A stretch of 64,000 bases of DNA, taken from assembly GCA_043801165.1 (NCBI GenBank), contig JAZDMG010000007.1:134155-198154 (forward strand), given 5' to 3'. Origin of the DNA: an archaeon. GTDB lineage: Archaea > Nanobdellota > Nanobdellia > Woesearchaeales > SM23-78. The stretch's first letter is position 1; each line of letters starts with the position of its first letter. The notes beneath the pieces are model-generated. The model was not told where the DNA came from, searched no databases, and was given only the letters and a program-made list of their open reading frames with translations. The position numbers and the translations under genes were made by a program. Positions 9,290 through 48,102 of this stretch are shown in pieces.

Positions 9290-11920
9290 ATGGCAAAGAA
9301 GAAATTCGTCTATTATTTCTCAGAAGGAGATAAGTCAATGAAAGAATTGCTTGGCGGCAAAGGCGCTAATCTTGCTGAGATGACCAAGCTGGGGATTCCT
9401 GTCCCTCCGGGATTTACCATCACAACTGAAAGCTGCGCCTATTACAGCAAGGAGAAGAAATGGCCTGCTGAGCTCGAGGGAGAGATCAAGAAGAGCATCG
9501 AGAGGCTTGAGAAGGAGATGAAGGCAGCCTTTGATGACAAGAAGAACCCATTGATGGTCTCTGTCAGGAGCGGTGCTGCTTCTTCGATGCCCGGGATGAT
9601 GGACACGATATTGAATCTAGGGATTAATGATTCTACTGTTCTTGTCATGGCTGAGAAGTCAGGCAATGAAAGATTCTCCTGGGATTCCTATAGGCGATTC
9701 ATACAGATGTTCGGAGACGTCGTAATGGGCGTTGAGCATAGGCTCTTCGAGGAAGTCATGGAGAACGCGAAGGAGACCAAGGGAGTCAAGTATGACACTG
9801 ACCTTGATGCCTCTGACATGAAAAAGATAGTTGAGAAGTATAAGGCTGTTGTGAAGAAGCATGCTGGCAAGGACTTCCCGCAAAAGCCATGGGATCAACT
9901 GAAATTGTCGATTAACGCTGTGTTCGACTCATGGAACAACGAACGAGCGATAACCTACAGGAAATTAAACCACATACAGGGATTATTGGGGACTGCTGTT
10001 AATATCCAGGCGATGGTCTTCGGAAACATGGGAGAGACGTCAGGCACAGGAGTATGCTTCTCAAGGAACCCGTCAACAGGAGAGAATGCTTTCTACGGAG
10101 AATACCTGATGAACGCCCAGGGAGAGGATGTTGTCGCAGGCATAAGGACGCCATTGCACATCAATGAGCTGAAGAAGAGCATGCCCAAGCAATACGCTGA
10201 GCTTGTCAAGATAAGGGATGACCTTGAGAAGCACTACAAGGACATGCAGGACATGGAGTTCACGATACAGGAAGGAAAGCTGTACATGCTGCAGACACGT
10301 AACGGAAAAAGGACTGCACAGGCAGCCGTCAAGATAGCAGTCGACATGGTAAAGGAGAAGCTCATCGACGAGAAGACAGCAATCCTTCGCGTCAACCCTG
10401 AACAGCTTGACCAATTATTGCACAAGACCATTGATCCTGTGGCCAGGAAAAAAGCAAAGCTGATAGCCAAAGGCCTGCCTGCATCGCCAGGAGCAGTAGT
10501 CGGAAGCATCGTGTTTAACGCTGAGAGAGCTGTTGAGCTCGCTGAACGCGGAGAGAAACTGGTGTTGGTAAGGACAGAGACAAGCCCAGAAGACATCAAG
10601 GGAATGAACGCAGCACAGGGAATACTGACTGCCCGCGGAGGAATGACTTCCCACGCAGCAGTTGTCGCCCGAGGAATGGGCAAATGCTGCGTAAGCGGAT
10701 GCAGCGAGATAAAGGTGAAAGAGGAAGAGAAGAAACTGCTGATCAGTGGAGTGATATACAATGAAGGAGACTTCCTGACACTTGACGGTTCAACTGGAGA
10801 AGTGTTTGAAGGAAAGATACCATTGGTCGATCCTTCACTTAGCGGAGACTTTGGTGTGCTTATGAAATGGGCTGACAGCTATAGAAAACTGAAAGTCAGG
10901 ACCAACGCAGACACACCGAACGATGCCCGCGTCGCAAGAGGATTCGGAGCAGAAGGAATTGGCCTTTGCAGGACTGAGCACATGTTCTTCGAGGGCGACA
11001 GGATAAAAGCAGTGCGAGAGATGATTGTTGCCTCTGACCTTGGCGGAAGAAGAATTGCCCTTGCTAAGCTATTGCCTATGCAGAGAGGAGACTTCATAGG
11101 GTTATTTACTGAGATGAAAGGATTGCCTGTCACCATCAGATTGCTTGACCCTCCTTTGCATGAATTTTTACCTCATGAAGAGGAAGACATCGTTGAGCTG
11201 GCTGCTGAGATGAAGATATCTGTTGAAAAGATAAAATCCAAGATCGAAGAGCTGCATGAGTTCAACCCAATGCTAGGACATCGAGGATGCAGGTTGGGGA
11301 TAATATTCCCTGAGATATCTGAGATGCAGGCAAGGGCCATCTTTGAAGCTGCTGCTGAAGTGAAGAAGAAAGGCATCGACGCCAAGCCAGAAGTAATGGT
11401 TCCTTTGGTCGGGATTGTCCGCGAGCTTAAATTGCAGAAGGACTTGATCATCAGAGTGGCTGAAGAAGTTATGAAAGAGAAGAAAGTCAAGATAGAATAT
11501 ACTATCGGGACGATGATAGAGGTGCCCAGGGCAGCCATCACTGCTGACGAGATAGCTACTGAAGCTGATTTCTTTTCTTTCGGGACCAATGACCTGACCC
11601 AGATGGGATTAGGGCTTTCTAGGGATGACGCTGGAAAGTTCCTTGGCAAATACGTTGACATGGGAATATATGCGCGTGACCCATTCCAAGCTTTGGACCA
11701 AGCTGGCGTTGGTGAGCTGATGAAGATAGCAGTGGCCAAGGGAAGGAAGGTAAAGCCTAAGCTGAAATGCGGAATATGCGGAGAGCACGGAGGAGAGCCA
11801 TCCTCGGTTGAGTTCTGCCATCGCATCGGACTGGATTATGTAAGCTGTTCACCTTACCGAGTGCCTATCGCACGGCTGGCTGCTGCTCATGCGGTGCTGA
11901 AAGAAGCCAAGAAGAAGTAG
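9290..11920 (+). CDS. ppdK: Pyruvate, phosphate dikinase
   Basis: [25 protein letters not shown] (phospho-His loop), the C-terminal PEP-utilising TIM-barrel motif [11 protein letters not shown] and [12 protein letters not shown] 9290 is preferred over GTG 9281. Confidence 0.95.
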
Positions 11921-16499: not shown

Positions 16500-17507
16500 T
16501 TATTCCAGCAGCCTATTGAGGCTCTGCCTCAGCTCATCCTTATCTGGCAGATAAAGCTTGTATTTTGAGGCGAATATCTGCTTATTATCCTCTGGCAAAG
16601 TGTATCTCACAACAGACTCTTTCTTGTCTGCGCACAGGAGGATTCCCACGGTCGGATTTTCCTCTTTTGATCTCAGTTCCCGGTCATAATAGTTCACATA
16701 CATCTGCATCTGCCCCAGGTCCTTATGGGTGAGCTTTCCGACCTTCAGGTCTATCAGCACAAAACATCTCAAAATCCGGTTATAGAACACCAAATCCACG
16801 AAAAAATGCTCTGAGTCCAAAGTCATCCTCTGCTGCCTTCCGACAAACATGAACCCTCTCCCAAGCTCAAGCAGGAACTTCTGCAGATGATCAATCAGCT
16901 TCTGCTCCAGTTCGCTCTCTGAGTATTTGCTTGATTCCTCAAGACCTAGGAATTCAAGGACATAAGGGTCTTTTATCAGGTCACCGGCCTTTTCTGTGAC
17001 CCGCCCCTTTTTCGAAAGCTCCAAGACCCCTTTCTTGTCCTTGCTCAAAGCGATCCTATGGAATAACATTGAGTTTATCTGCCTATCCAGCTCCCTGACA
17101 GACCACCTATCCCGGATGCATTGCTTTTCATAAAATGACCTCTCTAGGCTATCATCTAACCTTAAAAACAGCATGTAATGGCTCCAGCTCAATTCGTCAG
17201 ACACTGTCTGCCGATTCGGATAATTCAGATAGAACCTGCGCATATCAAGGATGTTTCTTATGCTAAAACCTTTACCATGGCGCAAGCTTAAATCCTTAGA
17301 TAAGTTGGCTAGAAGCTGAGAGCCATACTCTGCCCGCTCTTTGCCACCCTGCTCGTACTCTATGATTATTTTTCCTATTTCCCAATAGGTCCTGACAAGG
17401 ATGGAGTTGACTGCAGTGGCTGCCTGCTTCCTGCCATCCTCCAGCAAGACGCCTATGGAATCGACTAATGAACCATAACCCGTGCTCTTTACCGGAGGCT
17501 GTTTCAT
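16500..17507 (-). CDS. DUF1016/YhcG-like PD-(D/E)xK nuclease family protein
   Basis: FVDLVFYNRILRCFVLIDLKVGKLTHKDLGQMQMYVNYY resembles the YhcG nuclease core. ATG 17507 lies 25 nt from the TATA at 17532-17538. Confidence 0.7.
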   Translation of the reverse strand: MKQPPVKSTGYGSLVDSIGVLLEDGRKQAATAVNSILVRTYWEIGKIIIEYEQGGKERAEYGSQLLANLSKDLSLRHGKGFSIRNILDMRRFYLNYPNRQTVSDELSWSHYMLFLRLDDSLERSFYEKQCIRDRWSVRELDRQINSMLFHRIALSKDKKGVLELSKKGRVTEKAGDLIKDPYVLEFLGLEESSKYSESELEQKLIDHLQKFLLELGRGFMFVGRQQRMTLDSEHFFVDLVFYNRILRCFVLIDLKVGKLTHKDLGQMQMYVNYYDRELRSKEENPTVGILLCADKKESVVRYTLPEDNKQIFASKYKLYLPDKDELRQSLNRLLE

Positions 17508-17530
17508 GATCAATTGACTAGAAGGATGCG

Positions 17531-17581
17531 CTTAAATAGGCTGCGCCAGGCTGACTAGTGAGACCTGTGGTTATTTACGGG
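17531..17581 (+). promoter_or_regulatory. Conserved TATA-linked module, copy C (long form)
   Basis: cttaaataggctgcgccaggctgactagtgagacctgtggttatttacggg. Confidence 0.6.
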
Positions 17582-17643
17582 ACTTAGGGAAGACCGAAGC
17601 CACAGCGAAGATCGCAGTGGCGATGGCTAACTGAACCTTTCGG

Positions 17644-17688
17644 CAGGGCTTTCGCAGTTGATTCTCACGAAGAGGGCGAAAGCGGAAG
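17644..17688 (+). repeat. Hairpin repeat family, copy C
   Basis: caggGCTTTCGC-(20 nt)-GCGAAAGCggaag, 62 nt downstream of module copy C. Confidence 0.7.
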
Positions 17689-17764
17689 GATTCACAGATT
17701 CTTGGATATTATTCCGAAAAATCCTTGGCCGGTTATATTAATGAGCTTCTGCCCGCAGTTCTTT

Positions 17765-18304
17765 ATGCTTGATGAGCGAAGAGTAAAGGAAGCGAAAAGC
17801 AGCATGGCTGCTTATTTGGCTGACGGCCTCATAAAGAAAAATATTTTCAAGCAGATCATCTTTGACACTTACCTGCGGAATCACAGGGAATCTTTGCGGC
17901 TGGCTGCCTATGTCCATGAAAAAAAGCTTTCTTGCCTCTGGACTGTTGTCATAAGCTATTATTCTATGTTCTACATGGCTAACGCAGTGCTTTATGCTTT
18001 CGGCTACAAAGTAGGTGATTCGCGGGCGCACAGGGTGACTGCTGACGCGCTGATATGCTTTGTCCGTGAAAAGCTCAGGGGTTCGCTTTTGGAATGCTAT
18101 GAAGAAGCCATGGAAGAAGCTTTGGAGATGGCTGGCGCAAGGGCTGATGAGATCATATCCTCATTTGACAAGGAGCGGAAGAAGCGCTCTGAGTTCCAGT
18201 ATGAGACCTCTGAAGACCTGAAGGAGAGCAAGGCCTCTACTTCCCTCCATAGGGCTGAGGAGTTCGCAGTTGAGATGAACCGGCTGCTGAAGAGTTCTTT
18301 ATGA
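17765..18304 (+). CDS. HEPN-domain protein
   Basis: A helical protein. YYSMFYMANAVLYAFGYKVGDSRAHRVTADAL is HEPN-like. ATG 17765 follows the A/T box ttatatta (17733-17740). The track start at TTG 17702 overlaps the repeat. Confidence 0.55.
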   Translation: MLDERRVKEAKSSMAAYLADGLIKKNIFKQIIFDTYLRNHRESLRLAAYVHEKKLSCLWTVVISYYSMFYMANAVLYAFGYKVGDSRAHRVTADALICFVREKLRGSLLECYEEAMEEALEMAGARADEIISSFDKERKKRSEFQYETSEDLKESKASTSLHRAEEFAVEMNRLLKSSL

Positions 18305-18358
18305 AAACATTTATATATTATTACTAATATGTAATAGTATTATTATATAAAGGTAATA

Positions 18359-18925
18359 ATGATGGGTCCCCTGCTGAAGATATTAAGGTTCTTTATCGAG
18401 AATAAAGGACAGGCCAGCATCAACGCGTTGGCTGGAAAGCTAGGGATGAACTACAGGATAGCCTATTATGGGGTGAAAGAGCTTGAGAAAGAAGGGTTGA
18501 TCGCTGTCAAAAGGCTTGGGAACTCAAACCAATGCAGCCTAAGCTACGGGTTCAACGACAAGGTCTTGCTGGTTGAGAATATGAGGAAAGAAGAATTATT
18601 GAAGAATACTGACATAAGCATAATCAATGACCAGCTGGAAGATGTCGAAAATCCGCTCTTCATATGCCTGGTGTTCGGATCCTATGCTTCTTCTAAGCAG
18701 AAGAAGAATTCTGACATAGACATCTGCGTGATAGCAGAAGAGAAAACTTCGGAAGAAGTGAAAAGAGCCATAAGAGGCCATCCTGTCAAGACGCACATAC
18801 TGGCTTTCACGCCGCGAGAGTTCAAGGCGATGATGAAAACAACAGAAGAAAACGTAGGAAAAGAGATCAAAAGGATGAATGTGATACTCAACGGAACAGA
18901 AGAATACTACCGGATGAACAGGTGA
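18359..18925 (+). CDS. wHTH-fused minimal nucleotidyltransferase (MNT), partner of HEPN
   Basis: LVFGSYASSKQKKNSDIDICV is the GS-x(n)-DxD nucleotidyltransferase motif. The N-terminal part is winged-helix-like. Confidence 0.7.
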   Translation: MMGPLLKILRFFIENKGQASINALAGKLGMNYRIAYYGVKELEKEGLIAVKRLGNSNQCSLSYGFNDKVLLVENMRKEELLKNTDISIINDQLEDVENPLFICLVFGSYASSKQKKNSDIDICVIAEEKTSEEVKRAIRGHPVKTHILAFTPREFKAMMKTTEENVGKEIKRMNVILNGTEEYYRMNR

Positions 18926-19820
18926 GGAGGAGGAGCGAGCCTTCAATCAATCCCAACAGCGATACAGGCTCGGAGGAAGCCCATAGCGGTCCAAAGGGTG
19001 CGTCCAGAATCTCTTGAAAAAATAAAATTATGTTGTGGGCTATTGCTCTGCAATAGGCCTCTGCGCGCTGCGCAGAGATCTTGTGGCTAGCGATGCTAGC
19101 CCCAAATTTAGTTTTTATCGCTTTGAAAACAGATTCAACCATTTCTCTGCGATAATATCTTCTATGATGAACATATTTTTGGTTTTCTCTACGTAAAGTA
19201 TGATTTTTATTTCTACTTCTGCCTTTATTTCGCATGGGAATGCAAGCAGTTATTCCTTTGCTTGCGCAATATTCATGCAACCAATTAGCGTCATATCCTT
19301 TATCTGCCACAAGCCATTTGGCTTGTGGACTTCGTTTGAGCAAGTATTTTGCATCTCGAATATCGTGAGCTTTCTTTGCTCTTAGACGCAAAGCTAAGAT
19401 TTTCTTGGTTTTGGTATCGACGACAATGCTCAGTTTAAGGGGTATTTCCACCGGATAAGGTCTGTCGATGCGTCGATAATAGTATGGGCTGGGCAAAGAA
19501 CGACTCATGCCAGTGCCATCAATTGCCAAGATGTAGCTTTTTTTGTCTGCAGTAGCAGACAAAACTCTTTGCCAAAGATTTAACGGTATGCGATTCATAG
19601 CATACCACAAACCAGATTTGCTGGCGCACTTAACTCCAAGACCGCGAAGCATTCTAGTTATCCGACGATAACCTTGCTTGCATTCTTGTTTTAGAACAAG
19701 TGCTAAAAGATGATGTTTTAGCTCATATTTCTTTGGTCCAAAATGGTGTAGCCATCTTGGCATGCCTAAGCGTCTCAGGAGACGCTTAAATTTATTAATT
19801 AGTCTTTCTTCTTTAGCCAT
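18888..19820 (-). CDS. DDE transposase
   Basis: AIDGTG, VADKGYD and REMVESVFKAIK fit a DDE triad pattern. The reading frame has no stop inside the IS and runs through the left IR into flanking DNA. Confidence 0.8.
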   Translation of the reverse strand: MAKEERLINKFKRLLRRLGMPRWLHHFGPKKYELKHHLLALVLKQECKQGYRRITRMLRGLGVKCASKSGLWYAMNRIPLNLWQRVLSATADKKSYILAIDGTGMSRSLPSPYYYRRIDRPYPVEIPLKLSIVVDTKTKKILALRLRAKKAHDIRDAKYLLKRSPQAKWLVADKGYDANWLHEYCASKGITACIPMRNKGRSRNKNHTLRRENQKYVHHRRYYRREMVESVFKAIKTKFGASIASHKISAQRAEAYCRAIAHNIILFFQEILDAPFGPLWASSEPVSLLGLIEGSLLLLTCSSGSILLFR

Positions 19821-19902
19821 TGGGCGAACACCTCAGATGTTTGCCCCCCAGCTAGCCTAACGGCTAGCTGGCTTATTAAATTTTTAGATTCTGGACGCAC
19901 CC
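18996..19902 (-). mobile_element. IS element (IS4/IS5-like DDE transposase) with 17-bp terminal inverted repeats and 9-bp target duplication
   Basis: GGGTGCGTCCAGAATCT at 18996-19012 is the reverse complement of 19886-19902. CGGTCCAAA flanks both ends (18987-18995 and 19903-19911). Confidence 0.85.
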
Positions 19903-19947
19903 CGGTCCAAAGGAAAATTTATAAACTCTTTAACTTTAACACAATGC

Positions 19948-20439
19948 GTGGGATTAAATTCAATCATCAAATTTAAGAAAAAAACACCGGATTGGTGGAT
20001 TTTAACTCTATTGCCTCTTCTTCTCATACTTTCTGTTTCTGTGATAAGTTATTTTACTAATGGGATTTACACCGCATTATCCGCGTTTATCGAACAGATC
20101 TTAACGTTTAGTTTTGTCTTAAGTAGCACAGATCTGGCATTACGTTCAAAAATAGTAAAAGAAGATAAGCGTTCGAGATTACCTCCAATAATACCATTGA
20201 TTCTGGCTTTTATAATATTTATTATTTATGTTGCGTTAATTGATACTATTACGGCTCGATTTTCAAAAGACGTTATTTACTGTGTATTCGTATTAATAAC
20301 AATTATTATTGGTTATGCATCAATTATCTTGTATAACAACAATCCTTACAGTGATCCTTTTGAGCCGAATCCTGTAGAAGAGAAAATTGGTCAAGAAGAA
20401 GCAGACATGAAAAGATTTGAATTTGGAGATAAACAATGA
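19948..20439 (+). CDS. Small four-helix membrane protein, unknown function
   Basis: 163 aa, GTG start, four hydrophobic segments. Its stop overlaps the start of the next gene (ATGA at 20436-20439). Confidence 0.55.
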   Translation: MGLNSIIKFKKKTPDWWILTLLPLLLILSVSVISYFTNGIYTALSAFIEQILTFSFVLSSTDLALRSKIVKEDKRSRLPPIIPLILAFIIFIIYVALIDTITARFSKDVIYCVFVLITIIIGYASIILYNNNPYSDPFEPNPVEEKIGQEEADMKRFEFGDKQ

Positions 20440-21548
20440 ATTCGAATGAAGAGAAGTGGTTAGAAATATCTGTAATGGAGATTGAACAGCCTATTGGGAA
20501 ATTCTATATCGGAAAAGCTTTGGCCAACGATGTTACCAGAATCTGTTCTGCTGATAAAAGACAAAAAGTTATAAATGACGAGCTAGATGCTTACATAGGA
20601 ATTCAAAGACAACTAAATGAGGCTAGAAAAAAAGAAATTGAAAAATTTGTTTTAACCGAAGATGCTAGTTTTCCTAGTTCTGTTGTTCTTGCTGTTAAAG
20701 AAGGGGCATACGAATACGACAATGAGAGAAAAATTATTAAGATTAAAGAAGATAGAAAATCATGCAACATACTCGATGGTCAACACAGATTATCCGGATT
20801 TCCTGCAAACACCGAGAATAAATTTGAGCTTATCCTAACTATCTTTCCGGAACTTGATTTAGAATATCAAAGTTATCTTTTCTCAGTTATTAATACTCGC
20901 AGCACTAGAATTAATCCATCTTTAGCTCAAGATTTATATGCTTTCTCAAAAGTCGACACGCCTGAACGATTAGCTCACAGAATCGCTAGAGTTTTTAATA
21001 AAACTGAAGAAAATCCTTGGTTCATGAGATTGAAACTTCTTGGTATGAGCGACGGTAATAAAAATGCTATTTTATCACAAAGTACATTTACTAAATATAT
21101 TGTTGAATTGATATCAAGAAAAGAGGACACATATCAAATCAGAGATGTTCTGAAGAGAAACAACAATAAGAGAAAAGCTCTTAAAGACTTCAAATCTCAT
21201 GGTCCGCTTTGGGATAAATACATTAACGGTGAAGATAAATATATTTATGATTTATTAAAATGTTATTTTATTGCGGCAAAGCAAAAATTCCAAGATAACT
21301 GGGGAGATCATAACAGCATCATTACAAAAACAACAGGTTACGCTGCATTAATGAATGTATTGAAATATTTATTGAAAAGGGAATTGCCAAACGAACCCGA
21401 TGTTGGTTATTTCAAAAAGTATTTTGATAATATCCCCGACCCGATTATTGAGAGATTAGACAGTGAGCATTATACGCCGGGTCAAGTAGGAGAAAGTGAT
21501 CTTCAAAAAGATATTTTAAAAGGAATGGGATTTGAGAAAGGTAATTGA
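20436..21548 (+). CDS. DGQHR-domain (DndB-like, ParB/Srx-fold) protein
   Basis: NILDGQHRLSGF, with D of DGQHR at codon 114 (nt 20775), and the upstream GIQRQLNEARKKEI motif. Confidence 0.8.
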   Translation: MNSNEEKWLEISVMEIEQPIGKFYIGKALANDVTRICSADKRQKVINDELDAYIGIQRQLNEARKKEIEKFVLTEDASFPSSVVLAVKEGAYEYDNERKIIKIKEDRKSCNILDGQHRLSGFPANTENKFELILTIFPELDLEYQSYLFSVINTRSTRINPSLAQDLYAFSKVDTPERLAHRIARVFNKTEENPWFMRLKLLGMSDGNKNAILSQSTFTKYIVELISRKEDTYQIRDVLKRNNNKRKALKDFKSHGPLWDKYINGEDKYIYDLLKCYFIAAKQKFQDNWGDHNSIITKTTGYAALMNVLKYLLKRELPNEPDVGYFKKYFDNIPDPIIERLDSEHYTPGQVGESDLQKDILKGMGFEKGN

Positions 21549-21581
21549 TTTTAATCTCTTTTCTGATTAGTTGAAAGGAGC

Positions 21582-22364
21582 TTATTTTATATGCGCGTTC
21601 ATCTCTTCAAATCTTTGTTTAGTTAAGTTTAGGAATTCTTTTTCTTTCTCGATTCCAATATATTTTCTTCCTAGCGAGCACGCAACAACGCCAGTCGTTC
21701 CCGAGCCATTAAAGGGGTCTAGAATATAGTCTCCTTCATTAGAGCTGGATGCGATTATTCTTTTCAACAATTCAATCGGCTTCTGAGTTGGATGTGCTCC
21801 GCATTTCTTCTCGCTCATAGGAGTTAAAGGAATATGCCAAATGCTTCGCATTTGCTTTCCTTTCGGGCTTATCTTATCATCCCATTCTTTCATTTCTTTG
21901 TAGTGGAAGATGTGCTTCGCGTCCTTTTCTTTCCTGGCCCAGATTATCGTTTCGTGAGTATGAGCAAAGCAACGACAAGCGAGATTTGGAGGAGCATTGG
22001 GTTTATACCAAGTAATATCATTCAGAATGTGAAAACCCAACGATTGTAAAGCATAGCCCACCTGATAAATGTTATGCGGCGTTCCAGAAATCCAGATCGT
22101 TCCGTTCGGTTTCAAAACACGTCGACACTCCTTTATCCAGCTATAGGTAAATTCAAAATCCTTCTCGAATCCTTTTGATTTATCCCAATCTCCTTTATCT
22201 ACGCAAACCACTTTGCCAGCTTTGCAAGAAATGCCACCGTTTGAGAGGTTATAAGGAGGGTCGGCGAATATTGTGGTTATTGATTCACTTTTTATTTTTG
22301 GAAGCAGCTCTAAACAATCGCCATGCAAGAGAGTAATGTCTTCATCCTTATGATAAACAGTCAT
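21582..22364 (-). CDS. Beta-class DNA methyltransferase, probably N6-adenine
   Basis: N-terminal IFADPPYNL catalytic motif and C-terminal ILDPFNGSGTTGV SAM motif, in beta-class order. Confidence 0.85.
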   Translation of the reverse strand: MTVYHKDEDITLLHGDCLELLPKIKSESITTIFADPPYNLSNGGISCKAGKVVCVDKGDWDKSKGFEKDFEFTYSWIKECRRVLKPNGTIWISGTPHNIYQVGYALQSLGFHILNDITWYKPNAPPNLACRCFAHTHETIIWARKEKDAKHIFHYKEMKEWDDKISPKGKQMRSIWHIPLTPMSEKKCGAHPTQKPIELLKRIIASSSNEGDYILDPFNGSGTTGVVACSLGRKYIGIEKEKEFLNLTKQRFEEMNAHIK

Positions 22365-22385
22365 TCTCTATCAATTCATGACCTT

Positions 22386-22419
22386 GTTTATATTCTTTGC
22401 GTCGAAATGTCCAGTGCTA
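22386..22419 (+). promoter_or_regulatory. Conserved TATA-linked core module (short copy)
   Basis: gtttatattctttgcgtcgaaatgtccagtgcta. Confidence 0.6.
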
Positions 22420-22489
22420 TTATACAAAAAACGGAATATTCTCGTAAAAAGCGAAAATATTATTAACTTTGAGGCATAACATTTTATTA

Positions 22490-23125
22490 ATGACTGAAAA
22501 CTACACAGAAGGCATGAACTATCAAAAGATGCTGGATGTAATAAAGAAGTTAGAATTCGATAAAAAGAAAACCATCTATAAAGAGGTAAATGTTGAAGTG
22601 TATCTAATCAGACCTTCAGAATTGCCCAAACGATTAAAAAACAAATATGATGCTAGTAAAAATTTCCAAATCTGGTTAAAAGAAGATGAAAGAGAGTTCA
22701 AACCGAACCATTTAAGATTAATGATTGATTTGAATCTTAGAGCAAGATCAAGACCTGACTTGAAAAAAGACCTTCTGAAAGCATTCGATAACATATTCTA
22801 CGGAAATGACCCTCTTAAAGAAGTTCAGAAATTATCCTTGGAGAAATTCGAGCATTATCTGAATTCGATCAAAGTAATCGCTGTACTGATGCAGCTCTTT
22901 TTGATTGAACAGGATTTCAATTACATAAAAGACAGTAAATTTGAACCCAAAACGCTATTTTTTCAAGGATGGATTAGAGAATTCATAGACAGTCCAAAAG
23001 AAATCGATAATATGTGCATGAGCGTTTGCAATGGACAACCGCCAAAGATACAATATACTGATAAAGAAAATGGAAAACATAAGAAATACGAAAAAGATCT
23101 AAAACCATTGTGGTATTTGAATTAA
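22490..23125 (+). CDS. Hypothetical protein between two methyltransferase genes (candidate restriction endonuclease; unproven)
   Basis: 211 aa from ATG 22490. An A/T box at 22456-22466 lies 24 nt upstream. No nuclease motif could be assigned with confidence; the call is positional only. Confidence 0.5.
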   Translation: MTENYTEGMNYQKMLDVIKKLEFDKKKTIYKEVNVEVYLIRPSELPKRLKNKYDASKNFQIWLKEDEREFKPNHLRLMIDLNLRARSRPDLKKDLLKAFDNIFYGNDPLKEVQKLSLEKFEHYLNSIKVIAVLMQLFLIEQDFNYIKDSKFEPKTLFFQGWIREFIDSPKEIDNMCMSVCNGQPPKIQYTDKENGKHKKYEKDLKPLWYLN

Positions 23126-23955
23126 TAATTAGTTACTACAACCTCGTTGATTTCTCCACGACCTTCTGCTTTAGAATTAATCATTCTTCTTGCTTTGACA
23201 GTGTGAATTTTAAAATCAGCGTAAATTTCTTTTATTAGTTTTGTATCGCTGTTGCTTTCCATACAGAAGCATCCTTTTTCTGATAGTTTTCTGAAGATTT
23301 CAGCCAGTTTTTTCTGGTCTTTTTCTACAAAATTGTCTTTTGTATATGTCGTGAAGCTCGGTTTCGCATCCAAAGGATGATAAGGCGGGTCAAAATATAC
23401 AAAATCCCCTTCTTTAGCCAAATCAGCAATCTTTTCAAAAGACATTACCTTGATCGTTACGTTTTTTAGAAGTTCAGCGATTCTTCTTAGTTTATCTTCT
23501 TGGACGACATCCGGATTCTTGTAGTCACCCATAGGAACGTTAAATTGATTCTTAGAATTTACTCTATACAATCCATTAAAACAGGTTCGATTTAGATAAA
23601 TAAATCTGGCGGCTCTTTCCAATAAAGGCAAATCGTTTGGGCTGACACTTCTTATTTCATAATAATATTCTTTTCCGTCAGCCAAATGATATTCTTTGTG
23701 TTGCTTTAGCTCTACGATAAGCCGTTCTACATCGGTTTTGATAACATTGAACGCATTAATAAGCTCCTCGTTAGTATCTGAGAGAAAAACCTCTTTTGGT
23801 TTTAAATTTTGAATAACGAAGAAGGCCACAGCTCCGCTTCCTACAAACGGCTCAAAGTATCTATTAAATTTCTTTGGAAAGAGAGGCTTAAACTGCTCGA
23901 TAAGCTGCTGCTTCCCACCAGCCCACTTTACAAAACGCGGAATATCCTCACCCAT
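23122..23955 (-). CDS. Dam-type (alpha-class, D12) N6-adenine DNA methyltransferase
   Basis: The N-terminal WAGGK...EPFVGSGAV SAM motif precedes YFDPPY. Confidence 0.85.
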   Translation of the reverse strand: MGEDIPRFVKWAGGKQQLIEQFKPLFPKKFNRYFEPFVGSGAVAFFVIQNLKPKEVFLSDTNEELINAFNVIKTDVERLIVELKQHKEYHLADGKEYYYEIRSVSPNDLPLLERAARFIYLNRTCFNGLYRVNSKNQFNVPMGDYKNPDVVQEDKLRRIAELLKNVTIKVMSFEKIADLAKEGDFVYFDPPYHPLDAKPSFTTYTKDNFVEKDQKKLAEIFRKLSEKGCFCMESNSDTKLIKEIYADFKIHTVKARRMINSKAEGRGEINEVVVTNY

Positions 23956-24153: not shown

Positions 24154-24357
24154 ATGATAATAAGACAAACAAATCCGGAAAGAAAAACTCCAAGGGCGAT
24201 GTGGCATCATGGCACTTGTATGAGATGTAATGAAAGGACTGTTTTGGTTTTGCATTTTGGTTACGACACTTCGCCTGAGTTTTGCTATCAAATTTGCGAG
24301 AAATGCTTGAAAGAGCATCTTCCATTGATTAATCAAAAAATAGGTGTGTTGTATTAA
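24154..24357 (+). CDS. Small CxxC...CxxC zinc-ribbon-like protein
   Basis: 67 aa with CMRC and CEKC. The ATG lies 22 nt downstream of the palindromic TATA at 24124-24132. Confidence 0.4.
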   Translation: MIIRQTNPERKTPRAMWHHGTCMRCNERTVLVLHFGYDTSPEFCYQICEKCLKEHLPLINQKIGVLY

Positions 24358-24433
24358 ATTTCACGGAGAATTTTTATACGATAAACAAAAGATTTATATT
24401 CATTGTTTCAATTTAATTAAAAGAGGGAGAGGC

Positions 24434-25252
24434 ATGATTCGTAAGTCTTTACTTTATAAGAGCAGCGTGGAGTACGCTGACTTCTGCATCAATCATGTTG
24501 AAGGCTGTTCTCACGGGTGCACTTTTCCTTGTTATGCTATGATGATGGCCAAGCGCTTTGGCAAGATCAAGTCTTATTCTGACTGGATTAAGCCGAAAGT
24601 GGTCGAGAATGCTCTTGAGCTTCTTGATAAGGAGATCCCTAAGTACAAGGACCAGATAAAGTTTGTCCATCTCTGCTTCTCAACCGATCCTTTCATGTAT
24701 GGCCATGATGAGGTCAAGGATATGACTTTGAAGATCATTGAGCGCCTGAACAAGGACAATATAAGATGCACTGTGCTCACTAAGGGGGTCTATCCGAAAG
24801 AATTGGCAGATACAAAGAAGTATGGTCTGAATAATGAGTACGGCATCACCTTGGTCTCTCTTAATCAGGATTTTAAGCGCAGCTTTGAGCCTTTCGCAGC
24901 TTCTTACGAGCAAAGGATAAAATCGTTGAAGCGTTTGAGCGATGTCGGTCTTAAGACTTGGGTCAGCATGGAGCCTTATCCTACTCCGAACCTTGTCAAT
25001 CAAAATCTGAAGAAGATTCTTGAAAAAATCTCATTTGTCGACAAGATAGTCTTTGGAAAGCTCAATTATAACGTCAAGACTAGCTTGTTCAAGGACAACG
25101 CTACTTTCTATGAAGGCTGCGCGCAGACAGTGATTGATTTCTGCAAGAAAAAAGGAATAGATTATCATATCAAGTTCGGAACTCAAACCAGATTCGATAA
25201 GGCAACAGCTTCTTTGTTCAAGAAGAAGTGCGAAATAATAGTTCAAGTGTAA
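24434..25252 (+). CDS. Radical-SAM-like protein (SplB/COG1533-like) with an atypical Cys spacing
   Basis: EGCSHGCTFPCYA gives C-x3-C-x3-C, read directly from the DNA at 24503-24529. ATG 24434 is preceded by gagggagagg. Confidence 0.6.
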   Translation: MIRKSLLYKSSVEYADFCINHVEGCSHGCTFPCYAMMMAKRFGKIKSYSDWIKPKVVENALELLDKEIPKYKDQIKFVHLCFSTDPFMYGHDEVKDMTLKIIERLNKDNIRCTVLTKGVYPKELADTKKYGLNNEYGITLVSLNQDFKRSFEPFAASYEQRIKSLKRLSDVGLKTWVSMEPYPTPNLVNQNLKKILEKISFVDKIVFGKLNYNVKTSLFKDNATFYEGCAQTVIDFCKKKGIDYHIKFGTQTRFDKATASLFKKKCEIIVQV

Positions 25253-25690: not shown

Positions 25691-25716
25691 ATTACATTGT
25701 ATTACATAAGATTACA
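25691..25716 (+). promoter_or_regulatory. Three ATTACA repeats in 10-bp phase between TATA and ATG
   Basis: attaca occurs at 25691-25696, 25701-25706 and 25711-25716. Confidence 0.45.
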
Positions 25717-25998
25717 ATGGATATCATCACCATCAGGTTCCAGGAAGACATATTGAAGAAGATAGACCAAAGCATCGTAAACCATAACTTCAACTCCAGG
25801 ACTGAATTCATAAGGGAGGCTGTCAGGGACAAATTAGCAGGCCTCAGCAAGGAAGAGGCGATAGACGCTTTCCTGAGCCTGAGAGGAAAGCTCAAGGGCA
25901 GGACCAAGCCTGAAGATGATGAAAAGCTCAAATGGGCGGCAAGCAGGGAGCTGATGGCAGAATTGGATAAGCGTTTCAAGAGACCTTCTCAGGCCTAG
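25717..25998 (+). CDS. CopG/RHH-family protein (antitoxin-like)
   Basis: MDIITIRFQEDILKKIDQSIVNHNFNSRTEFIREAVRDKL. Paralogue of 14329..14592. Confidence 0.7.
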   Translation: MDIITIRFQEDILKKIDQSIVNHNFNSRTEFIREAVRDKLAGLSKEEAIDAFLSLRGKLKGRTKPEDDEKLKWAASRELMAELDKRFKRPSQA

Positions 25999-26401
25999 AG
26001 CTCTCGCAGATGTCAGAAAGAGCGTGGATGACGTGCTTATCCTGGGAGATCAGCACCGCTCCATGGTTTCTTGCATGGATCGCGTTGAGGCAGTCGTTGT
26101 AAGGGATTTTTCTCTTCAGGGCAAGCTCTCTTGCTTCAACATCCTCTTCCTCAGTTATCTCTATCCTGCTGAGTTTTCCCATGTGCCCGAGAAGATTGAG
26201 AAGCTCATCTATCTCTTCATGAGAATACCTTAATCTTAGCTCAATTATCAATACCTTTGAAAAGAGGATGACGTTTTTCTTTTTCAGTATCTTCACAAAG
26301 AATTCATACGCATAGCTCCCCAAAGGCCTTCCAACTAAGCTTATCCTATCCTCGTAGAAGTCTCTCCAGATGCAGGCATCGACAATATATTTCTGGCTCA
26401 T
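25976..26401 (-). CDS. PIN-domain toxin (VapC-like)
   Basis: MSQKYIVDACIWRDFYEDR... from ATG 26401. Paralogue of 13924..14337. Confidence 0.75.
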   Translation of the reverse strand: MSQKYIVDACIWRDFYEDRISLVGRPLGSYAYEFFVKILKKKNVILFSKVLIIELRLRYSHEEIDELLNLLGHMGKLSRIEITEEEDVEARELALKRKIPYNDCLNAIHARNHGAVLISQDKHVIHALSDICESSRPEKVS

Positions 26402-26488
26402 GGATTGATTTAATGATAACCTAATAATAAACTGCACTCAAAAAAAATCACAATAATTGCGAAGAGAACACAATCCTTTCGTCTTTCA

Positions 26489-26538
26489 CGTAAATAATCA
26501 CAGGTCTCACTGGACAGCTCGACGTGAGGTATTTAAAC
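26489..26538 (-). promoter_or_regulatory. Conserved TATA-linked module, copy G (long form, no hairpin)
   Basis: The reverse complement reads gtttaaatacctcacgtcgagctgtccagtgagacctgtgattatttacg. Confidence 0.6.
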
Positions 26539-26559
26539 AATTCTTGCTGATATGTTTTC

Positions 26560-27393
26560 ATGAAAAAAGACAGAGCTCTGGTGGTTTTCCAGGACAAGAA
26601 AATCAGAAGAGTCTGGCACAACGACGAGTGGTTTTTCTCAGTCATAGATGTTGTTTACGCACTAGAAGCCAGTACAATACCAAAAAGGTATTGGTCAGAC
26701 CTAAAAGTCAAGCTTTCTGAGGAAGGATTTGAAGCGTACGATAAAATCGTACAGTTGAAATTGGTGGCTGAGGACGGAAAACTCAGGGAGACCGATTGCG
26801 CCAGCACAAGGAACATGTTCCGTATAATCCAATCAATCCCCTCTCCAAAGGCCGAGCCTTTCAAACTCTGGCTGGCGAAAGTCGGTTATGAGCGCGTCCA
26901 GGAGATACAGGACCCGGAACTGGCCCACAAAAGGATTGGTGAGATCTACCGGCAGAAAGGCTATTCTGAGGAATGGGTAAGGCATCGTCTAAGCATCATG
27001 GACTTAAGGCAGGAGATGACTGAGGAATGGAAGAACCGAGATGTGAATGAAGAGCGAGAATTCGCCATACTTACAAACGAGATAAGCAAAGCAGCCTTCG
27101 GAAAGACCGTGGACGAGTACAAAGGGCTCAAAGGGCTAAAAAAGCACAACCTGAGAGACCACATGAACAGGCTTGAGCTCATATTCACATCGCTTGCAGA
27201 GGCATCGACAACAGCCATCGCAAGAGGAAAGGACGTCAAAGGTTTCAAGGAGAACGAGAAAGCCGCAAAGGAAGGTGGAACTGTCGCAGGAAACGCAAGA
27301 AAAGAGCTGGAGAAAAAATCAGGCAAACCTGTCGTCTCGAATGACAATTACCTTGATGAGCCGGAGAAGGCCAAGAGAAAGAGTCTTAGATAA
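26560..27393 (+). CDS. DinD-like protein (Bro-N-like N-terminal domain)
   Basis: FQDKKIRRVWHNDEWFFSVIDVV, plus C-terminal KGLKKHNLRDHMNRLELIFTSLAE recalled as resembling E. coli DinD. Confidence 0.6.
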   Translation: MKKDRALVVFQDKKIRRVWHNDEWFFSVIDVVYALEASTIPKRYWSDLKVKLSEEGFEAYDKIVQLKLVAEDGKLRETDCASTRNMFRIIQSIPSPKAEPFKLWLAKVGYERVQEIQDPELAHKRIGEIYRQKGYSEEWVRHRLSIMDLRQEMTEEWKNRDVNEEREFAILTNEISKAAFGKTVDEYKGLKGLKKHNLRDHMNRLELIFTSLAEASTTAIARGKDVKGFKENEKAAKEGGTVAGNARKELEKKSGKPVVSNDNYLDEPEKAKRKSLR

Positions 27394-27476
27394 AAAATTA
27401 GATATGACCAGACTATTTTGTTGGTGTCAACAAAACGATACCGACCGGTTACAAATTGTAACCAAATCAAGTTATC

Positions 27477-27520
27477 TTCCGAATCCGCCCCTCGCGCTGC
27501 TGCAGCCGGCGGATTCCCTG
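27477..27520 (-). repeat. Hairpin repeat family, copy H
   Basis: ttccGAATCCGCC-(18 nt)-GGCGGATTCcctg. Confidence 0.7.
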
Positions 27521-27548
27521 TTGTCGTCTTAGCCAAGAACAGCTCATC

Positions 27549-27608
27549 CTAGTTCAAAACAACTATCGCTACGTTAAGTATAGTGGCGAACGTCACCCGG
27601 AGAAGGTA
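27549..27608 (-). pseudogene. Relic 3' end of a second, diverged tspO allele
   Basis: Translated by hand it reads YLLRVTFATILNVAIVVLN-stop, against YLLWVSFATILNVAIVVLN-stop in the intact tspO. It is preceded by an in-frame stop, so it is a fragment only. Confidence 0.7.
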
Positions 27609-27630
27609 TCAATAAAACCACCTCTCTTCT

Positions 27631-28068
27631 CTACCGCTTAGAACCAGTCCTTTTCTCCTTGAGGATGATCAAGAGCTCTTCTGGCTTGATTATCCTTATC
27701 CCGGAGTATTCTTTCACCTTCAATAGGTGCTTGTCATTGCTTATCACGTAATCGACTTTGCCTGCCAGTGCGCATTCCAGGATCTTATTGTCATCAGGGT
27801 CTTCCTTCACGACGTCCAGCCTTGTTTCCGGCCTGACGATTGTAGATATGGACTCTATCTTCTCAACAGTCCTGTTCATTTCCAGACCTTTGCCTCTTAT
27901 CTTGTCCTTTATCTCTGGGTAATCCAGCACTTTCCTGAAATCATCAAGTATTTCCGCAGACAATACCAGCTCTGCCTCGTCGTTTTCTATCATCCTGAGT
28001 ACCTTATCAGAGTCTCCCGACCAGAATGTTGAAGAGACCAGTATGTTGACGTCAGCCGTTATTCGCAT
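27631..28068 (-). CDS. PIN-domain toxin
   Basis: 145 aa. ITADVNILVSS... and DDNKILECA...VISNDKHLL are PIN acidic motifs. Confidence 0.75.
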   Translation of the reverse strand: MRITADVNILVSSTFWSGDSDKVLRMIENDEAELVLSAEILDDFRKVLDYPEIKDKIRGKGLEMNRTVEKIESISTIVRPETRLDVVKEDPDDNKILECALAGKVDYVISNDKHLLKVKEYSGIRIIKPEELLIILKEKRTGSKR

Positions 28069-28324
28069 CCTTCTTCCTCATCCTGTGGATCATCGCCACC
28101 ACATCCGATTCTTTCAGCCCGGCTTTCCTAGCAGCTTCCTTCAGCGGTCTCGTTATATCCTCAAATGTCTCAGGGATCACTTTTTTCATCATCACAGCAT
28201 TGTCTTTTACCATGAAGAGTATCTTAGTGCCTTCCTCCAGCCCAAGTTCCTCTCTTATGCTGCTGGGTATCGCTATCTGCCCTCTTGAGCTTACGGTTCC
28301 AAGTTCTATTATCTCAGTTGCCAT
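28052..28324 (-). CDS. AbrB/SpoVT-family antitoxin
   Basis: VSSRGQIAIPSSIREELGL is the swapped-hairpin motif. ATG 28324 is preferred. A TATA-like sequence on the minus strand, about 40 nt upstream of the ATG, reads ctttaaatac. Confidence 0.75.
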   Translation of the reverse strand: MATEIIELGTVSSRGQIAIPSSIREELGLEEGTKILFMVKDNAVMMKKVIPETFEDITRPLKEAARKAGLKESDVVAMIHRMRKKDANNG

Positions 28325-28455
28325 TTCTAAACACCTCAATCTTGTTTACAAGATATATCTTGTATTTAAAGATTTCGGCAAAAAGCATGCAAGAAGAACT
28401 GATTAATAAGATGCCCTCATAAAAAAGCGTGATTTCAAAGCAAGAATCTTAAAAT

Positions 28456-28504
28456 CTTCAGAATTTGCCTTCTTCCTCGTCAGAACTGATGTGCAAATTC
28501 CCCG
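28456..28504 (-). repeat. Hairpin repeat family, copy I
   Basis: cttcaGAATTTGC-(24 nt)-GCAAATTCcccg. Confidence 0.7.
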
Positions 28505-28505
28505 T

Positions 28506-28970
28506 CTAATTCAAAACAACAATCGCCACGTTAAGAATAGTCGCAAAGCTCACCCAAAGAAGATACGGCACCAATAAATACCCAGCTTTCCTATCGACCT
28601 TGAAGAACTTCATCATGGTGACCAGTATCATCACCCATAATACGATTATCTCTACCAAGGCCCATGACGGGTTGCGGAATCCAAAGAAAATCACTGACCA
28701 TATCACGTTCAGCACCAGTTGCGCCATGAACGCCTTCATCGCCCCTCCTTCTTCCTTCCGCCATACGAGATAGAAGGCGATTCCCATCATGATAAAAAGC
28801 AAAGTCCATACTGGCCCGAACAGCCACGAAGGAGGATTAAAAACCGGCTTCGCCAAAGAAGCATACCATACAGGGATGGCTGGTGTGGTGAACAACGACC
28901 CTACTGCTCCAGCAAGTAAACAAACAACGACAGAAATGATCAGCTTAACCTCTTTTCTCACAGATACCAA
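28506..28970 (-). CDS. tspO: TspO/MBR tryptophan-rich sensory protein
   Basis: 154 aa with five TM segments. WYASLAKPVFNPPSWLFGPVWTLLF is the family signature. Confidence 0.85.
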   Translation of the reverse strand: MVSVRKEVKLIISVVVCLLAGAVGSLFTTPAIPVWYASLAKPVFNPPSWLFGPVWTLLFIMMGIAFYLVWRKEEGGAMKAFMAQLVLNVIWSVIFFGFRNPSWALVEIIVLWVMILVTMMKFFKVDRKAGYLLVPYLLWVSFATILNVAIVVLN

Positions 28971-29008
28971 TAATAAGCCTGACTATTAATACTTTGCTGA
29001 AAAGAGCG

Positions 29009-29260
29009 TCATCTCCTCTTGTAGATGCTCTTCCTGTGGCCTATGCAGGTCACGATTATCCGTGAATCAGCTATGTCAGCTATGGCCCTATAATCCCCGA
29101 CCCTCAGCTTATAGTCCGCTCTCCCTTCAAGCCTTTCAAAGAAGTGAAAAGGATCGTTCTTGGCTCGCTGAAGCTTTAAGAATATCCTCTCTCTGATCCT
29201 CTTCTCGAGCTTTTCCAGGAATCTTATGGCTTCTTCGTCTATTACCAGCTCATAGCTCAT
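29009..29260 (-). CDS. RelE/ParE-family toxin
   Basis: 83 aa. ADYKLRVGDYRAIADI...IVTCIGHRKSIY. Confidence 0.75.
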   Translation of the reverse strand: MSYELVIDEEAIRFLEKLEKRIRERIFLKLQRAKNDPFHFFERLEGRADYKLRVGDYRAIADIADSRIIVTCIGHRKSIYKRR

Positions 29261-29496
29261 AAACCTAGCCTCTTCTTGGCTTCGGCTTCTGTGAGGAATC
29301 TTCCCTTTCTTATCCTTTCCCTGGCTTTTTCTATGGCTTCGACAGTCTCTTTGCTGAGCTCAGGCTTGCTCTTCGTGTTCTTGGCTATGAACAGCAGCTT
29401 CTTCAGCACCTCATCATAGCTCTCGTTCTTGTATTCCCTGAAGGTGTCAAGCTCTGACTTTGTCCCGTCATGTATCTTTATTGTCGTCTCGCTCAT
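29257..29496 (-). CDS. Antitoxin
   Basis: Small ORF overlapping the toxin start by 4 nt. ATG 29496 is preferred. GGTATAC direct repeats lie in its promoter. Confidence 0.6.
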   Translation of the reverse strand: MSETTIKIHDGTKSELDTFREYKNESYDEVLKKLLFIAKNTKSKPELSKETVEAIEKARERIRKGRFLTEAEAKKRLGL

Positions 29497-29622
29497 AAAA
29501 AGCTCACCGTATACCACAGTATACCGAAGTATATTTAATGCTTTCTATTCTGATGGCAGCGAGGGTGATTAATATAGCCTAGCAAAAGGTTTTCGGACAG
29601 ATTCTGGAAGAAGCGATGTCTT

Positions 29623-29668
29623 CTTCCGAATCCGCCCTTCGCGTTTCTTCGTCCGGCGGATTCCCTGT
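29623..29668 (-). repeat. Hairpin repeat family, copy J
   Basis: cttccGAATCCGCC-(19 nt)-GGCGGATTCcctg. Confidence 0.7.
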
Positions 29669-29685
29669 TGTCCCTCCGCTTTCTC

Positions 29686-29737
29686 CGTAAATAACCACAG
29701 GACGCATAGGACAGCTCGACGCAGCGCTTATATAGCC
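29686..29737 (-). promoter_or_regulatory. Conserved TATA-linked module, copy J (long form)
   Basis: The reverse complement reads ggctatataagcgctgcgtcgagctgtcctatgcgtcctgtggttatttacgg. Confidence 0.55.
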
Positions 29738-29764
29738 AGCTCACCTTTTTCTCCTCGAAGCTTC

Positions 29765-30055
29765 ATGAAGTCCGAAACATTTAAATACCAGATGGTATCT
29801 AATGGTATCATGGGAGAGCAGATCAATGTCAGGCTGTCAGGGCAGATGCTCCTGAGCGCAAAGGATTATGCCAAGGCCAACGGCTTTGACAACGTGCAAG
29901 AGCTCATAAAGGAGACCCTGAGGGAAAAGCTCTTTGAGACCAGCCAGGTCTCAAGCAGGGAGCTTACGCTGATAAAAAAGCTCGTCCAGGCCAGTGAAAA
30001 AAGCGATCTCTACGGCACTGAGAAAGAACTATTCCGGAAGCTTCGGAGAAAATGA
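29765..30055 (+). CDS. RHH-type antitoxin
   Basis: INVRLSGQMLLSAKDYAKANGFDNVQELIKETLREKL. It abuts the next ORF. Confidence 0.6.
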   Translation: MKSETFKYQMVSNGIMGEQINVRLSGQMLLSAKDYAKANGFDNVQELIKETLREKLFETSQVSSRELTLIKKLVQASEKSDLYGTEKELFRKLRRK

Positions 30056-47889: not shown

Positions 47890-48102
47890 ATGGCAGGAAA
47901 AGATGACAAGGGAAAGAAACCAGCAGCAGGCGGAAAGCCGAAGAAGAAGGCAGCCAGCAAAGTAGGCAAGATATATGAAGTCTCAGGCAATTCTCTCAAG
48001 AGGAAGAACAAGAGCTGCCCAAAGTGCGGGACAGGGACATTCATGGCCAACCACAAGGACCGAGTGACCTGCGGCAAGTGCGGGTATACTGAGAAAAAGT
48101 AA
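47890..48102 (+). CDS. rps27ae: Ribosomal protein S27ae
   Basis: [24 protein letters not shown] zinc ribbon with a basic N-terminus. Confidence 0.9.

Follow-up and report, generated by a model that had tools for sequence, protein, structure and literature searches.

The gene pair and its low-GC island

A 64,000-nt stretch of a Woesearchaeales genome (contig JAZDMG010000007.1, positions 134,155 to 198,154; hereinafter, the window) carries 2 codirectional genes, one for a four-helix membrane protein and one for a DGQHR (DndB-like) protein, which are the subject of this analysis. As described in a first-pass annotation made from the sequence alone, the membrane open reading frame (ORF) ends within the start of the DGQHR gene, the stop and start codons overlapping by 4 nt in the ATGA at 20436-20439. 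The pair opens a low-GC island of approximately 4 kb, which comprises 5 genes in all, namely, the pair, an N6_N4 methylase, a 211-aa protein and a Dam-family methylase (Table 1). In 400-nt windows, the GC content is 31-37% over positions ~19900-23900 and ~43-50% in the flanks, with the N6_N4 methylase gene (~42% GC) being the exception within the block. The manual G+C counts given earlier (22 of 60 at 20041-20100 and 33 of 60 at 10441-10500) are exact, and the neighbors are those previously listed: 2 adenine methyltransferases, an unassigned gene and a radical S-adenosylmethionine (radical-SAM) gene.

On the left, the island is bounded by an insertion sequence (IS) with perfect 17-nt inverted repeats (18996-19012 and 19886-19902) and an 11-nt direct repeat, CGGTCCAAAGG, at 18987-18997 and 19903-19913, in agreement with the target duplication reported at 19903. 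A spacer of 34 nt separates the duplication from the start codon of the membrane gene, a GTG which corresponds in the alignment to the ATG of the closest homolog. The element AAGGAAAATTTATAAAC, with a TATA-like TTTATAAA at 19917-19924 (24-31 nt 5′ of the GTG), is found 24-40 nt 5′ of the start codon both in the window and in the related locus L001, and a similar element is present in L090. Judging from its sequence and conserved position, this element may function as a promoter of the pair, which seems to have been left intact by the IS duplication.

Table 1. Features of the island and its left boundary in the window
Feature	Position	Strand	Remarks
IS element	18987-19913	-	DDE_Tnp_1 transposase at 18888-19820; left bound of the island; context, outside the module
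Conserved upstream element	19910-19930	+	putative archaeal-type promoter, leaderless transcript
Four-helix membrane partner gene	19948-20439	+	163 aa; GTG start
DGQHR gene	20436-21548	+	370 aa
N6_N4 methylase gene	21582-22364	-	beta-class, CcrM/HinfI/DpnA-like; convergent with the DGQHR gene, 33-nt gap
211-aa protein gene	22490-23125	+	likely ATG start (mechanical ORF from 22469); convergent with Dam, 4-nt overlap
Dam-family (D12) adenine methyltransferase gene	23122-23955	-	intact DPPY motif; inverted, 1.6 kb downstream of the pair

The membrane protein is a constant, coevolving partner of the DGQHR protein

A homolog search with the window DGQHR protein yielded 45 full-length relatives, whereas an exhaustive profile search delineated a clade of 673 clusters at 50% identity (E ≤ 1e-30) within a wider DGQHR superfamily of 4582 clusters (E ≤ 0.001). 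Scanning 1 genome per species, we found relatives in at least 533 species-level genomes, and the best 80 of these, distributed across many bacterial phyla and archaea, were used for the analysis of genomic context, with 85 loci available for clustering of the neighboring genes. A homologous small membrane ORF is located directly upstream of the DGQHR gene in every related locus with sufficient upstream sequence (83 of 83); thus, the lack of conservation that, according to the first-pass annotation, would refute its proposal of a paired module was not found. The upstream ORFs are on the same strand as the DGQHR gene, encode 144-273 aa with 2-5 predicted helices and end at the DGQHR start, with the window pair conforming to this arrangement. 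The most common distance between the 2 genes is −4 nt (30 of 82 loci), and in most loci it falls within about ±15 nt. The pair is also carried by plasmids, including pTR3_1 of Acinetobacter, a Bacillus thuringiensis plasmid and a Roseateles replicon. On plasmid pRphaN831b of Rhizobium, a protein annotated in RefSeq as "DNA phosphorothioation-associated DGQHR protein 1" is preceded by a membrane ORF recognized by our hidden Markov model (HMM) of the membrane family (E = 1.6e-5).

Across 46 operons, the pairwise distances between DGQHR proteins correlate with those between their membrane partners (rho = 0.64, Mantel p = 0.001) and less so with those between the Dam methylases (rho = 0.29, Mantel p = 0.001). 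Thus, the membrane and DGQHR proteins coevolve, whereas the methylase is swapped more freely. The 2 genes constitute a true, translationally coupled unit. The gene overlap and the coevolution further suggest that the 2 proteins may form a physical complex at the membrane.

The 163-aa membrane protein displays the 4 hydropathy peaks noted previously, at residues 16-35, 43-59, 79-101 and 109-128. Its charge distribution (a basic N-terminus and a basic loop at residues 65-79) predicts an N-in/C-in topology, which would place the acidic C-terminal tail (residues 131-163) in the cytoplasm. A word-index homolog search with this protein recovered only 2 relatives, but the genomic context exposes this result as a problem of sensitivity, since synteny and HMMs recovered the membrane family: on the contigs of the closest relatives, a homologous ORF of 152-166 aa lies immediately upstream of the DGQHR gene in all cases. 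Comparison of the window subfamily with the main bacterial subfamily of membrane ORFs by hhalign gave a probability of 91% (E = 1e-6), and an iterated HMM matched 83 of the 7906 ORFs from all loci, each of them directly upstream of a DGQHR gene. The family is fast-evolving, with members usually of about 150-240 aa and 4 helices, and the DGQHR proteins to whose genes they are coupled are ~370 aa in length. The partner in the window has no match among Pfam, NCBIfam or PADLOC models, and RefSeq labels the membrane partners "hypothetical protein" or, in Escherichia coli, "accessory gene regulator B family protein." The latter identity was rejected: the E. coli protein alone reaches the Pfam AgrB model (24.0 bits versus a cutoff of 23), with 5 other members unmatched, and the marginal score, not being shared by these, was treated as compositional.

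Features of the DGQHR protein

The assignment of the second protein to the DGQHR group was borne out by profile searches, with the window protein scoring 156.3 bits against TIGR03187 (cutoff 58.85) and 40.2 bits against the Pfam model DndB (PF14072; cutoff 29.1). It consists of an N-terminal α/β domain with the ParB/Srx fold (residues ~8-190) and an all-helical C-terminal domain (residues ~215-363). The motifs GIQR (ending at R58), DGQHR (114-118) and FxxxN (F149-N153) are invariant in the 45 homologs, the exact DGQHR pentapeptide is present in 85 of 85 relatives, and the N-terminal domain also contains a DASFP motif. The AlphaFold2 model has a mean predicted local distance difference test score (pLDDT) of 83, with a confidently modeled, all-helical C-terminal domain. 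Foldseek comparison of this model with the PDB returned a sole, weak match, to the N-terminal domain of pNOB8 ParB, and sequence search of the PDB gave nothing meaningful. We considered HEPN as a candidate for the C-terminal domain and rejected it, there being no conserved Rx4-6H motif in this domain of the family. No phage genome encoding a relative of the DGQHR protein was found in a search of phage genomes.

Ten longer relatives were scanned for fusions, revealing a single fusion to pentapeptide repeats and otherwise no known domains. The fused protein, P0181 (546 aa), carries the repeats at its C-terminus; the pentapeptide-repeat fold acts as a DNA mimic in other proteins. In some loci, a second, larger DGQHR paralog (426-809 aa) is encoded beside the methylase in addition to the pair (L090 237-1859, L021 503-1783, L031 1502-3931, L066 5049-7385 and L080 4977-7277); in 2 of these larger proteins that were scanned, DndB was the only domain recognized.

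The pair is linked to interchangeable DNA-modification genes

Genes neighboring the pair in the 85 loci were clustered, and cluster representatives were scanned against Pfam. A DNA-modification gene is located within 5 kb of the pair in 71 of the 80 species-level genomes. Most commonly, this is a D12/Dam methylase (51 genomes), with the others encoding a divergent D12 methylase (4), an MT-A70 methylase (4, three with a BglII-type endonuclease), only an N6_N4 methylase (3) or dnd genes for DndC, DndD, a DndE-ATPase and DndA (9). In the remaining 9 genomes, none was recognized within this distance, 2 of these loci being contigs of 2-3 kb. The window itself has modification genes within 5 kb, both on the strand opposite to the pair. 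The partner type tracks the DGQHR phylogeny, with the 9 dnd-linked proteins forming 1 clade. The window protein falls outside this clade and groups with Dam-linked relatives from archaea and candidate phyla; clustering with dnd-associated proteins was the other outcome that the first-pass annotation had considered adverse to its proposal.

The commonest gene order is Dam-membrane protein-DGQHR, with Dam and the membrane gene separated by −41 to +15 nt in ~40 loci; compact examples are found in Pseudomonas kuykendallii (L044), Variovorax (L045) and on plasmid pTR3_1 of Acinetobacter (L096). In the close clade of the window, the order is membrane protein-DGQHR-Dam (L001, L002, L003, L005, L085, L086 and L088), with the Dam of 1 close relative being divergent. 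The DPPY motif is present in 52 of 55 Dam genes. The clustered neighbors of the 85 loci include no recurring fourth gene, such as an endonuclease, in the Dam-containing cassettes. Several cassettes are inserted among housekeeping genes, and neighbors typical of defense islands, including type I restriction-modification systems, AIPR, SduA, integrases and toxin-antitoxin genes, were found at related loci. Endonucleases do accompany particular loci: DpnII in L013 and L061, and BglII-type enzymes in L009, L010, L042 and pTR3_1, the system of the latter plasmid also including a helix-turn-helix (HTH) controller protein. A DUF6996/DUF6997 protein follows the module Dam in L003 (11977-12738) and recurs in L013 beside DpnII; it may be a further Dam-linked accessory protein or endonuclease.

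The first-pass annotation had emphasized the absence of dnd and dpd partner genes. Indeed, the window lacks dnd genes: HMMs derived from the related loci (DndC, DndE-ATPase, DndA, MT-A70, DpnII and BglII) matched nothing in the 64 kb, and the DndD model gave a 19-bit match alone, to a 1166-aa coiled-coil ORF. Furthermore, the SGGxDS PP-loop motif of the DndC/QueC type is contained in no window ORF, with no dedicated DpdA model having been run, and no dpd partner model of PADLOC matched any of 6 island proteins. The depiction of the pair as devoid of partners is misleading, however, because 71 of 80 relatives are located near a modification gene and the close relatives are operonic with Dam; the adjacent adenine methylases are the expected partner class.

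The pair in the dnd-dpt islands of E. coli

In E. coli 55989 (L101, 12071-13750), the pair is located between dptH and dndE, following dptFGH and codirectional with these genes. It is present in 125 complete E. coli genomes, that is, in 55989 and 124 others. The island of E. coli 55989 also contains a canonical dndB; given this coexistence, the pair is not simply a substitute for DndB. In Salmonella, the position adjacent to dptFGH is occupied by DndI, a ParB-fold nickase that senses phosphorothioates (PMC11662687).

The methylase block and surroundings of the pair in the window

The Dam of the window shares 58.5% identity with the one encoded within the L003 module operon and 67.5% with that of L094, which is convergent with a homolog of the 211-aa protein. 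The 4-nt overlap between these convergent genes is likewise found in L094/L095, and the 211-aa protein is not linked to the pair elsewhere. Its family is highly conserved, with more than 649 homologs (63-92% identity) from archaea and bacteria, none of which has a name or a Pfam domain; the AlphaFold2 model (pLDDT 89) matched nothing in the PDB by Foldseek. In Haloimpatiens (L092), a homolog adjoins 2 N6_N4 methylases, a D12 methylase and a DpnII endonuclease. Thus, the 211-aa protein may be an endonuclease or an accessory protein of GATC systems. Homologs of the N6_N4 methylase (cluster c4) occur near the module in L007, L010, L013, L020 and L061. Because close homologs of this methylase and of the 211-aa protein are recorded on JGI contigs of the same size (2835 nt), these 2 genes probably travel together. 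Most simply, the original Dam of the module would have been replaced or rearranged in the window by a methylase block.

Among 4-nt palindromes, GATC is the most depleted in the window (195 observed versus 331 expected; ratio 0.59), the ratios of the others lying between 0.68 and 1.08, as would fit a genome long exposed to GATC-specific restriction.

The region around the island (16500-18925 and 25700-30350) is rich in defense and toxin-antitoxin-type genes. A YhcG PDDEXK nuclease is encoded at 16500-17513, a nucleotidyltransferase with an HTH domain at 18359-18925 beside an unassigned 200-aa ORF, and several small paired ORFs at 25.7-30.3 kb are toxin-antitoxin-like by sequence appearance alone. 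The radical-SAM gene (24344-25252, + strand) is located just beyond the low-GC block. Its product shows distant similarity to the PA0069/Rv2578c families and to "radical SAM mobile pair protein B," as well as weak matches to DUF5131 and the PADLOC candidates PDC-M41B/M30B; no counterpart was found near the module among the clustered neighbors of the 85 loci. Further low-GC stretches at 48001-51000, 35001-36000 and 63001-64000 (35-39% versus ~47%) suggest other acquired islands.

Relationship to known systems

Specific family models place the window protein outside of TIGR04172, DndB proper and DpdB. At E ≤ 0.01, NCBIfam gave TIGR04172, TIGR03187 and DpdB only, that is, no model for DndB proper, and the PADLOC DndB model missed the protein. 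The best full-length model is TIGR04172 ("DNA phosphorothioation-associated DGQHR protein 1"), with 177.8 bits over residues 12-362, far below its cutoff of 450 bits; 10 relatives scored 86-237 bits. DpdB (NF041060) is the second-best specific model for all members tested, with the window protein scoring 46.7 bits against a cutoff of 300. PADLOC returned remote DpdB or DndB matches for the DGQHR proteins and nothing more.

DndB, the best-studied DGQHR protein, is described as an ATP-modulated repressor of dndBCDE (PMC4507180, as cited in PMC10853773), although both its regulator role and its effector role are debated (PMC10853773), and a related DndB-like protein binds ATP/GTP (bioRxiv 10.1101/2025.10.10.680097). 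The window protein shares with DndB the DGQHR/ParB-Srx domain, the QR, DGQHR and FxxxN motifs and a location beside DNA-modification genes, but the window lacks dnd genes and the module has an obligate membrane partner. TIGR04172 proteins are similar in this latter respect, as judged from the upstream membrane ORF on pRphaN831b and the related DGQHR gene of the E. coli 55989 dnd island, whereas the window clade is tied to Dam rather than dnd and no dnd cluster is present in the 64 kb. DpdB is summarized in PMC12839542 as a DGQHR/ParB-like ATPase powering preQ0 insertion by DpdA; it is likewise encoded with a DNA-modification enzyme, but no membrane partner is described for it.

Functional parallels extend to more distant systems. 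SspE and DndI are ParB-fold NTPases that sense DNA modification and spare self DNA (PMC11662687). In these proteins and in GmrSD (DUF262 DGQQR NTPase with HNH), reading of the modification by a ParB-fold NTPase controls the attack on unmodified DNA, a role which the module may share, and in E. coli 55989 the module holds the position that DndI occupies in Salmonella. Unlike these proteins, the module lacks a fused HNH/DUF1524 nuclease, and its motif reads DGQHR instead of DGQQR; the DGQHR protein is a separate polypeptide with a membrane partner. DndI, a DUF262-HNH protein, was rejected as a family member and kept as a functional and positional analog only. Kiwa is a defense complex of a membrane protein and a DNA binder which senses membrane events in phage infection and conjugation (PMC11785009). 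It resembles the module in consisting of 2 genes, for a small polytopic membrane protein (the four-helix KwaA) and a cytosolic DNA-directed protein (KwaB), but is unrelated in sequence and not linked to methylases, and the KwaA/KwaB models of PADLOC matched neither protein of the window pair. A further comparison is with the DpnII-type cassette (the Dam-family DpnM, DpnA and DpnII): the window has Dam and a DpnA/HinfI-like methylase in the adjacent block, and L013 and L061 combine Dam, the DpnII endonuclease and the module, but the DpnII HMM found nothing in the window, where the 211-aa protein sits at the place expected for the endonuclease. PbeABCD, considered as a possible source of a membrane-DGQHR pair (PbeA/PbeB), was rejected, as the papers show an HKD-helicase, a small protein, a CxC ABC ATPase and a DndE-like protein.

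In full-text literature searches, we found neither a membrane partner nor Dam coupling described for DGQHR proteins. The tie of DGQHR proteins to DNA modification was known already; the obligate membrane partner, the predominant coupling to Dam and a possible endonuclease-free restriction logic are new.

Proposed function and alternative explanations

The pair belongs to a widespread, apparently undescribed two-gene module, the constant core of cassettes with an interchangeable modification gene. We propose that it functions as a membrane-anchored, NTP-driven reader or effector acting on unmodified DNA, a proposal to which we give an even chance of being correct. In view of the almost constant adjacency to a modification gene, usually Dam, the module probably represents the half of a restriction-modification-like system that has gone unstudied, and we infer a function in defense or DNA sensing. 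Through its acidic cytoplasmic tail, the membrane protein would tether the DGQHR protein to the inner surface of the membrane, where the latter would read the modification state of DNA through binding and hydrolysis of NTP. Modified self DNA would release it, whereas unmodified incoming DNA would be nicked or blocked, or else the membrane partner would be triggered as an abortive-infection effector. The module would thereby constitute the non-self arm of a Dam-based, probably GATC-specific, restriction-modification-like system, with the physical interaction, modification sensing and effector activity all being predicted properties. A restriction-like or exclusion role is favored by the compact, mobile cassette, which combines a methylase with intact motifs and no endonuclease, by the invariant putative NTPase motifs and the defense-island neighbors, and by the precedents of SspE/DndI and Kiwa, together with the position after dptFGH, alongside a genuine dndB, in E. 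coli 55989.

Several observations weigh against this proposal. The DGQHR protein has no recognizable nuclease domain beyond the ParB fold, and no PDB match was obtained for its C-terminal domain. At some loci, a classical endonuclease is already present and the module is an add-on, and 9 of the 80 loci have the pair but no modification gene nearby. An in-frame stop divides the DGQHR gene of E. coli 55989 and H240 into pieces of 101 and 268 aa, and the other E. coli carriers match the split sequence at ≥99% identity. In the window, Dam lies outside the operon of the pair, the gene order departs from that of the close clade, and this Dam may belong primarily to the adjacent 211-aa protein. Finally, the same family is associated with N6-methyladenine, through 3 methylase classes, and with phosphorothioate, which fits a regulator more easily than a direct reader.

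The latter consideration leads to the main rival explanation, namely, that the DGQHR protein is a controller of the DndB type, an NTP-modulated DNA-binding repressor tuning the adjacent modification gene, with the membrane partner sequestering and releasing it. We consider such a role a good deal less probable than that of a reader or effector, though well worth weighing. It has the precedent of DndB, in the description of this ATP-modulated repressor of dndBCDE in PMC4507180, as cited in PMC10853773, and it accords with the occurrence of the module beside modification genes of varied chemistry, including complete restriction-modification systems with an endonuclease, as well as with the absence of a canonical dndB among the neighboring genes of the dnd-linked clade. 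In E. coli 55989, however, the pair coexists with a canonical dndB and is codirectional with dptFGH rather than dndBCDE; pTR3_1 already carries an HTH controller; some pairs have no adjacent methylase to control; NCBIfam gave no DndB-specific family for the window protein; and an obligate, coevolving membrane partner is no known feature of such controllers.

Less probable still is that the DGQHR protein is an ATPase helper of the DpdB type, which loads the modification enzyme or confines methylation to membrane-located (e.g., incoming) DNA and takes no action against non-self. The account of DpdB summarized in PMC12839542 provides a precedent for such a helper. The rank of DpdB as second-best model for all members, the tight operons with the methylase and the adjacency of a DpnA-like methylase in the window, L013, L020 and L061 point the same way; the DpnA-type methylase of the DpnII system acts on incoming single-stranded DNA. 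However, the methylase is exchanged far more readily than the membrane partner, some pairs have no methylase nearby, and the DpdB score falls far short of the model cutoff; to our knowledge, Dam-family methylases work alone in all studied cases. Similarly unlikely is that, in this genome, the pair is an inactive remnant, having lost its original operonic Dam through rearrangement and its upstream signals through the IS insertion, with the adjacency to methylases being incidental. The window is the only locus of the close clade without Dam directly downstream of the DGQHR gene, its Dam is nearer to the one paired with the 211-aa protein than to the module Dam, and the IS duplication ends close to the start codon. 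Nevertheless, both ORFs are intact and full-length, with all invariant residues, the conserved promoter-like element survives the IS insertion, low GC is common to all 5 genes, and Dam-type and N6_N4 methylases are the usual partners elsewhere.

Implications

DGQHR/DndB-like proteins are among the least understood parts of DNA-modification systems. A large clade of these proteins has an obligate, coevolving membrane partner which is unnamed in databases, and its usual companion is an ordinary Dam methylase rather than an exotic pathway. Thereby, many apparent orphan Dam methylases become candidates for three-gene systems. More broadly, and with confidence that falls somewhat short of even, we suggest that the Dam-membrane protein-DGQHR cassettes and their variants with other methylases or dnd genes may represent a new, broad class of modification-guided defense, in which a membrane-tethered ParB-fold NTPase would tell self from incoming DNA at the envelope without a classical restriction endonuclease, and that the pair may also be an overlooked component of enterobacterial dnd-dpt islands. 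In any case, the analysis draws attention to an unstudied gene pair within the dnd-dpt island of E. coli 55989 that is shared by 124 other complete E. coli genomes.

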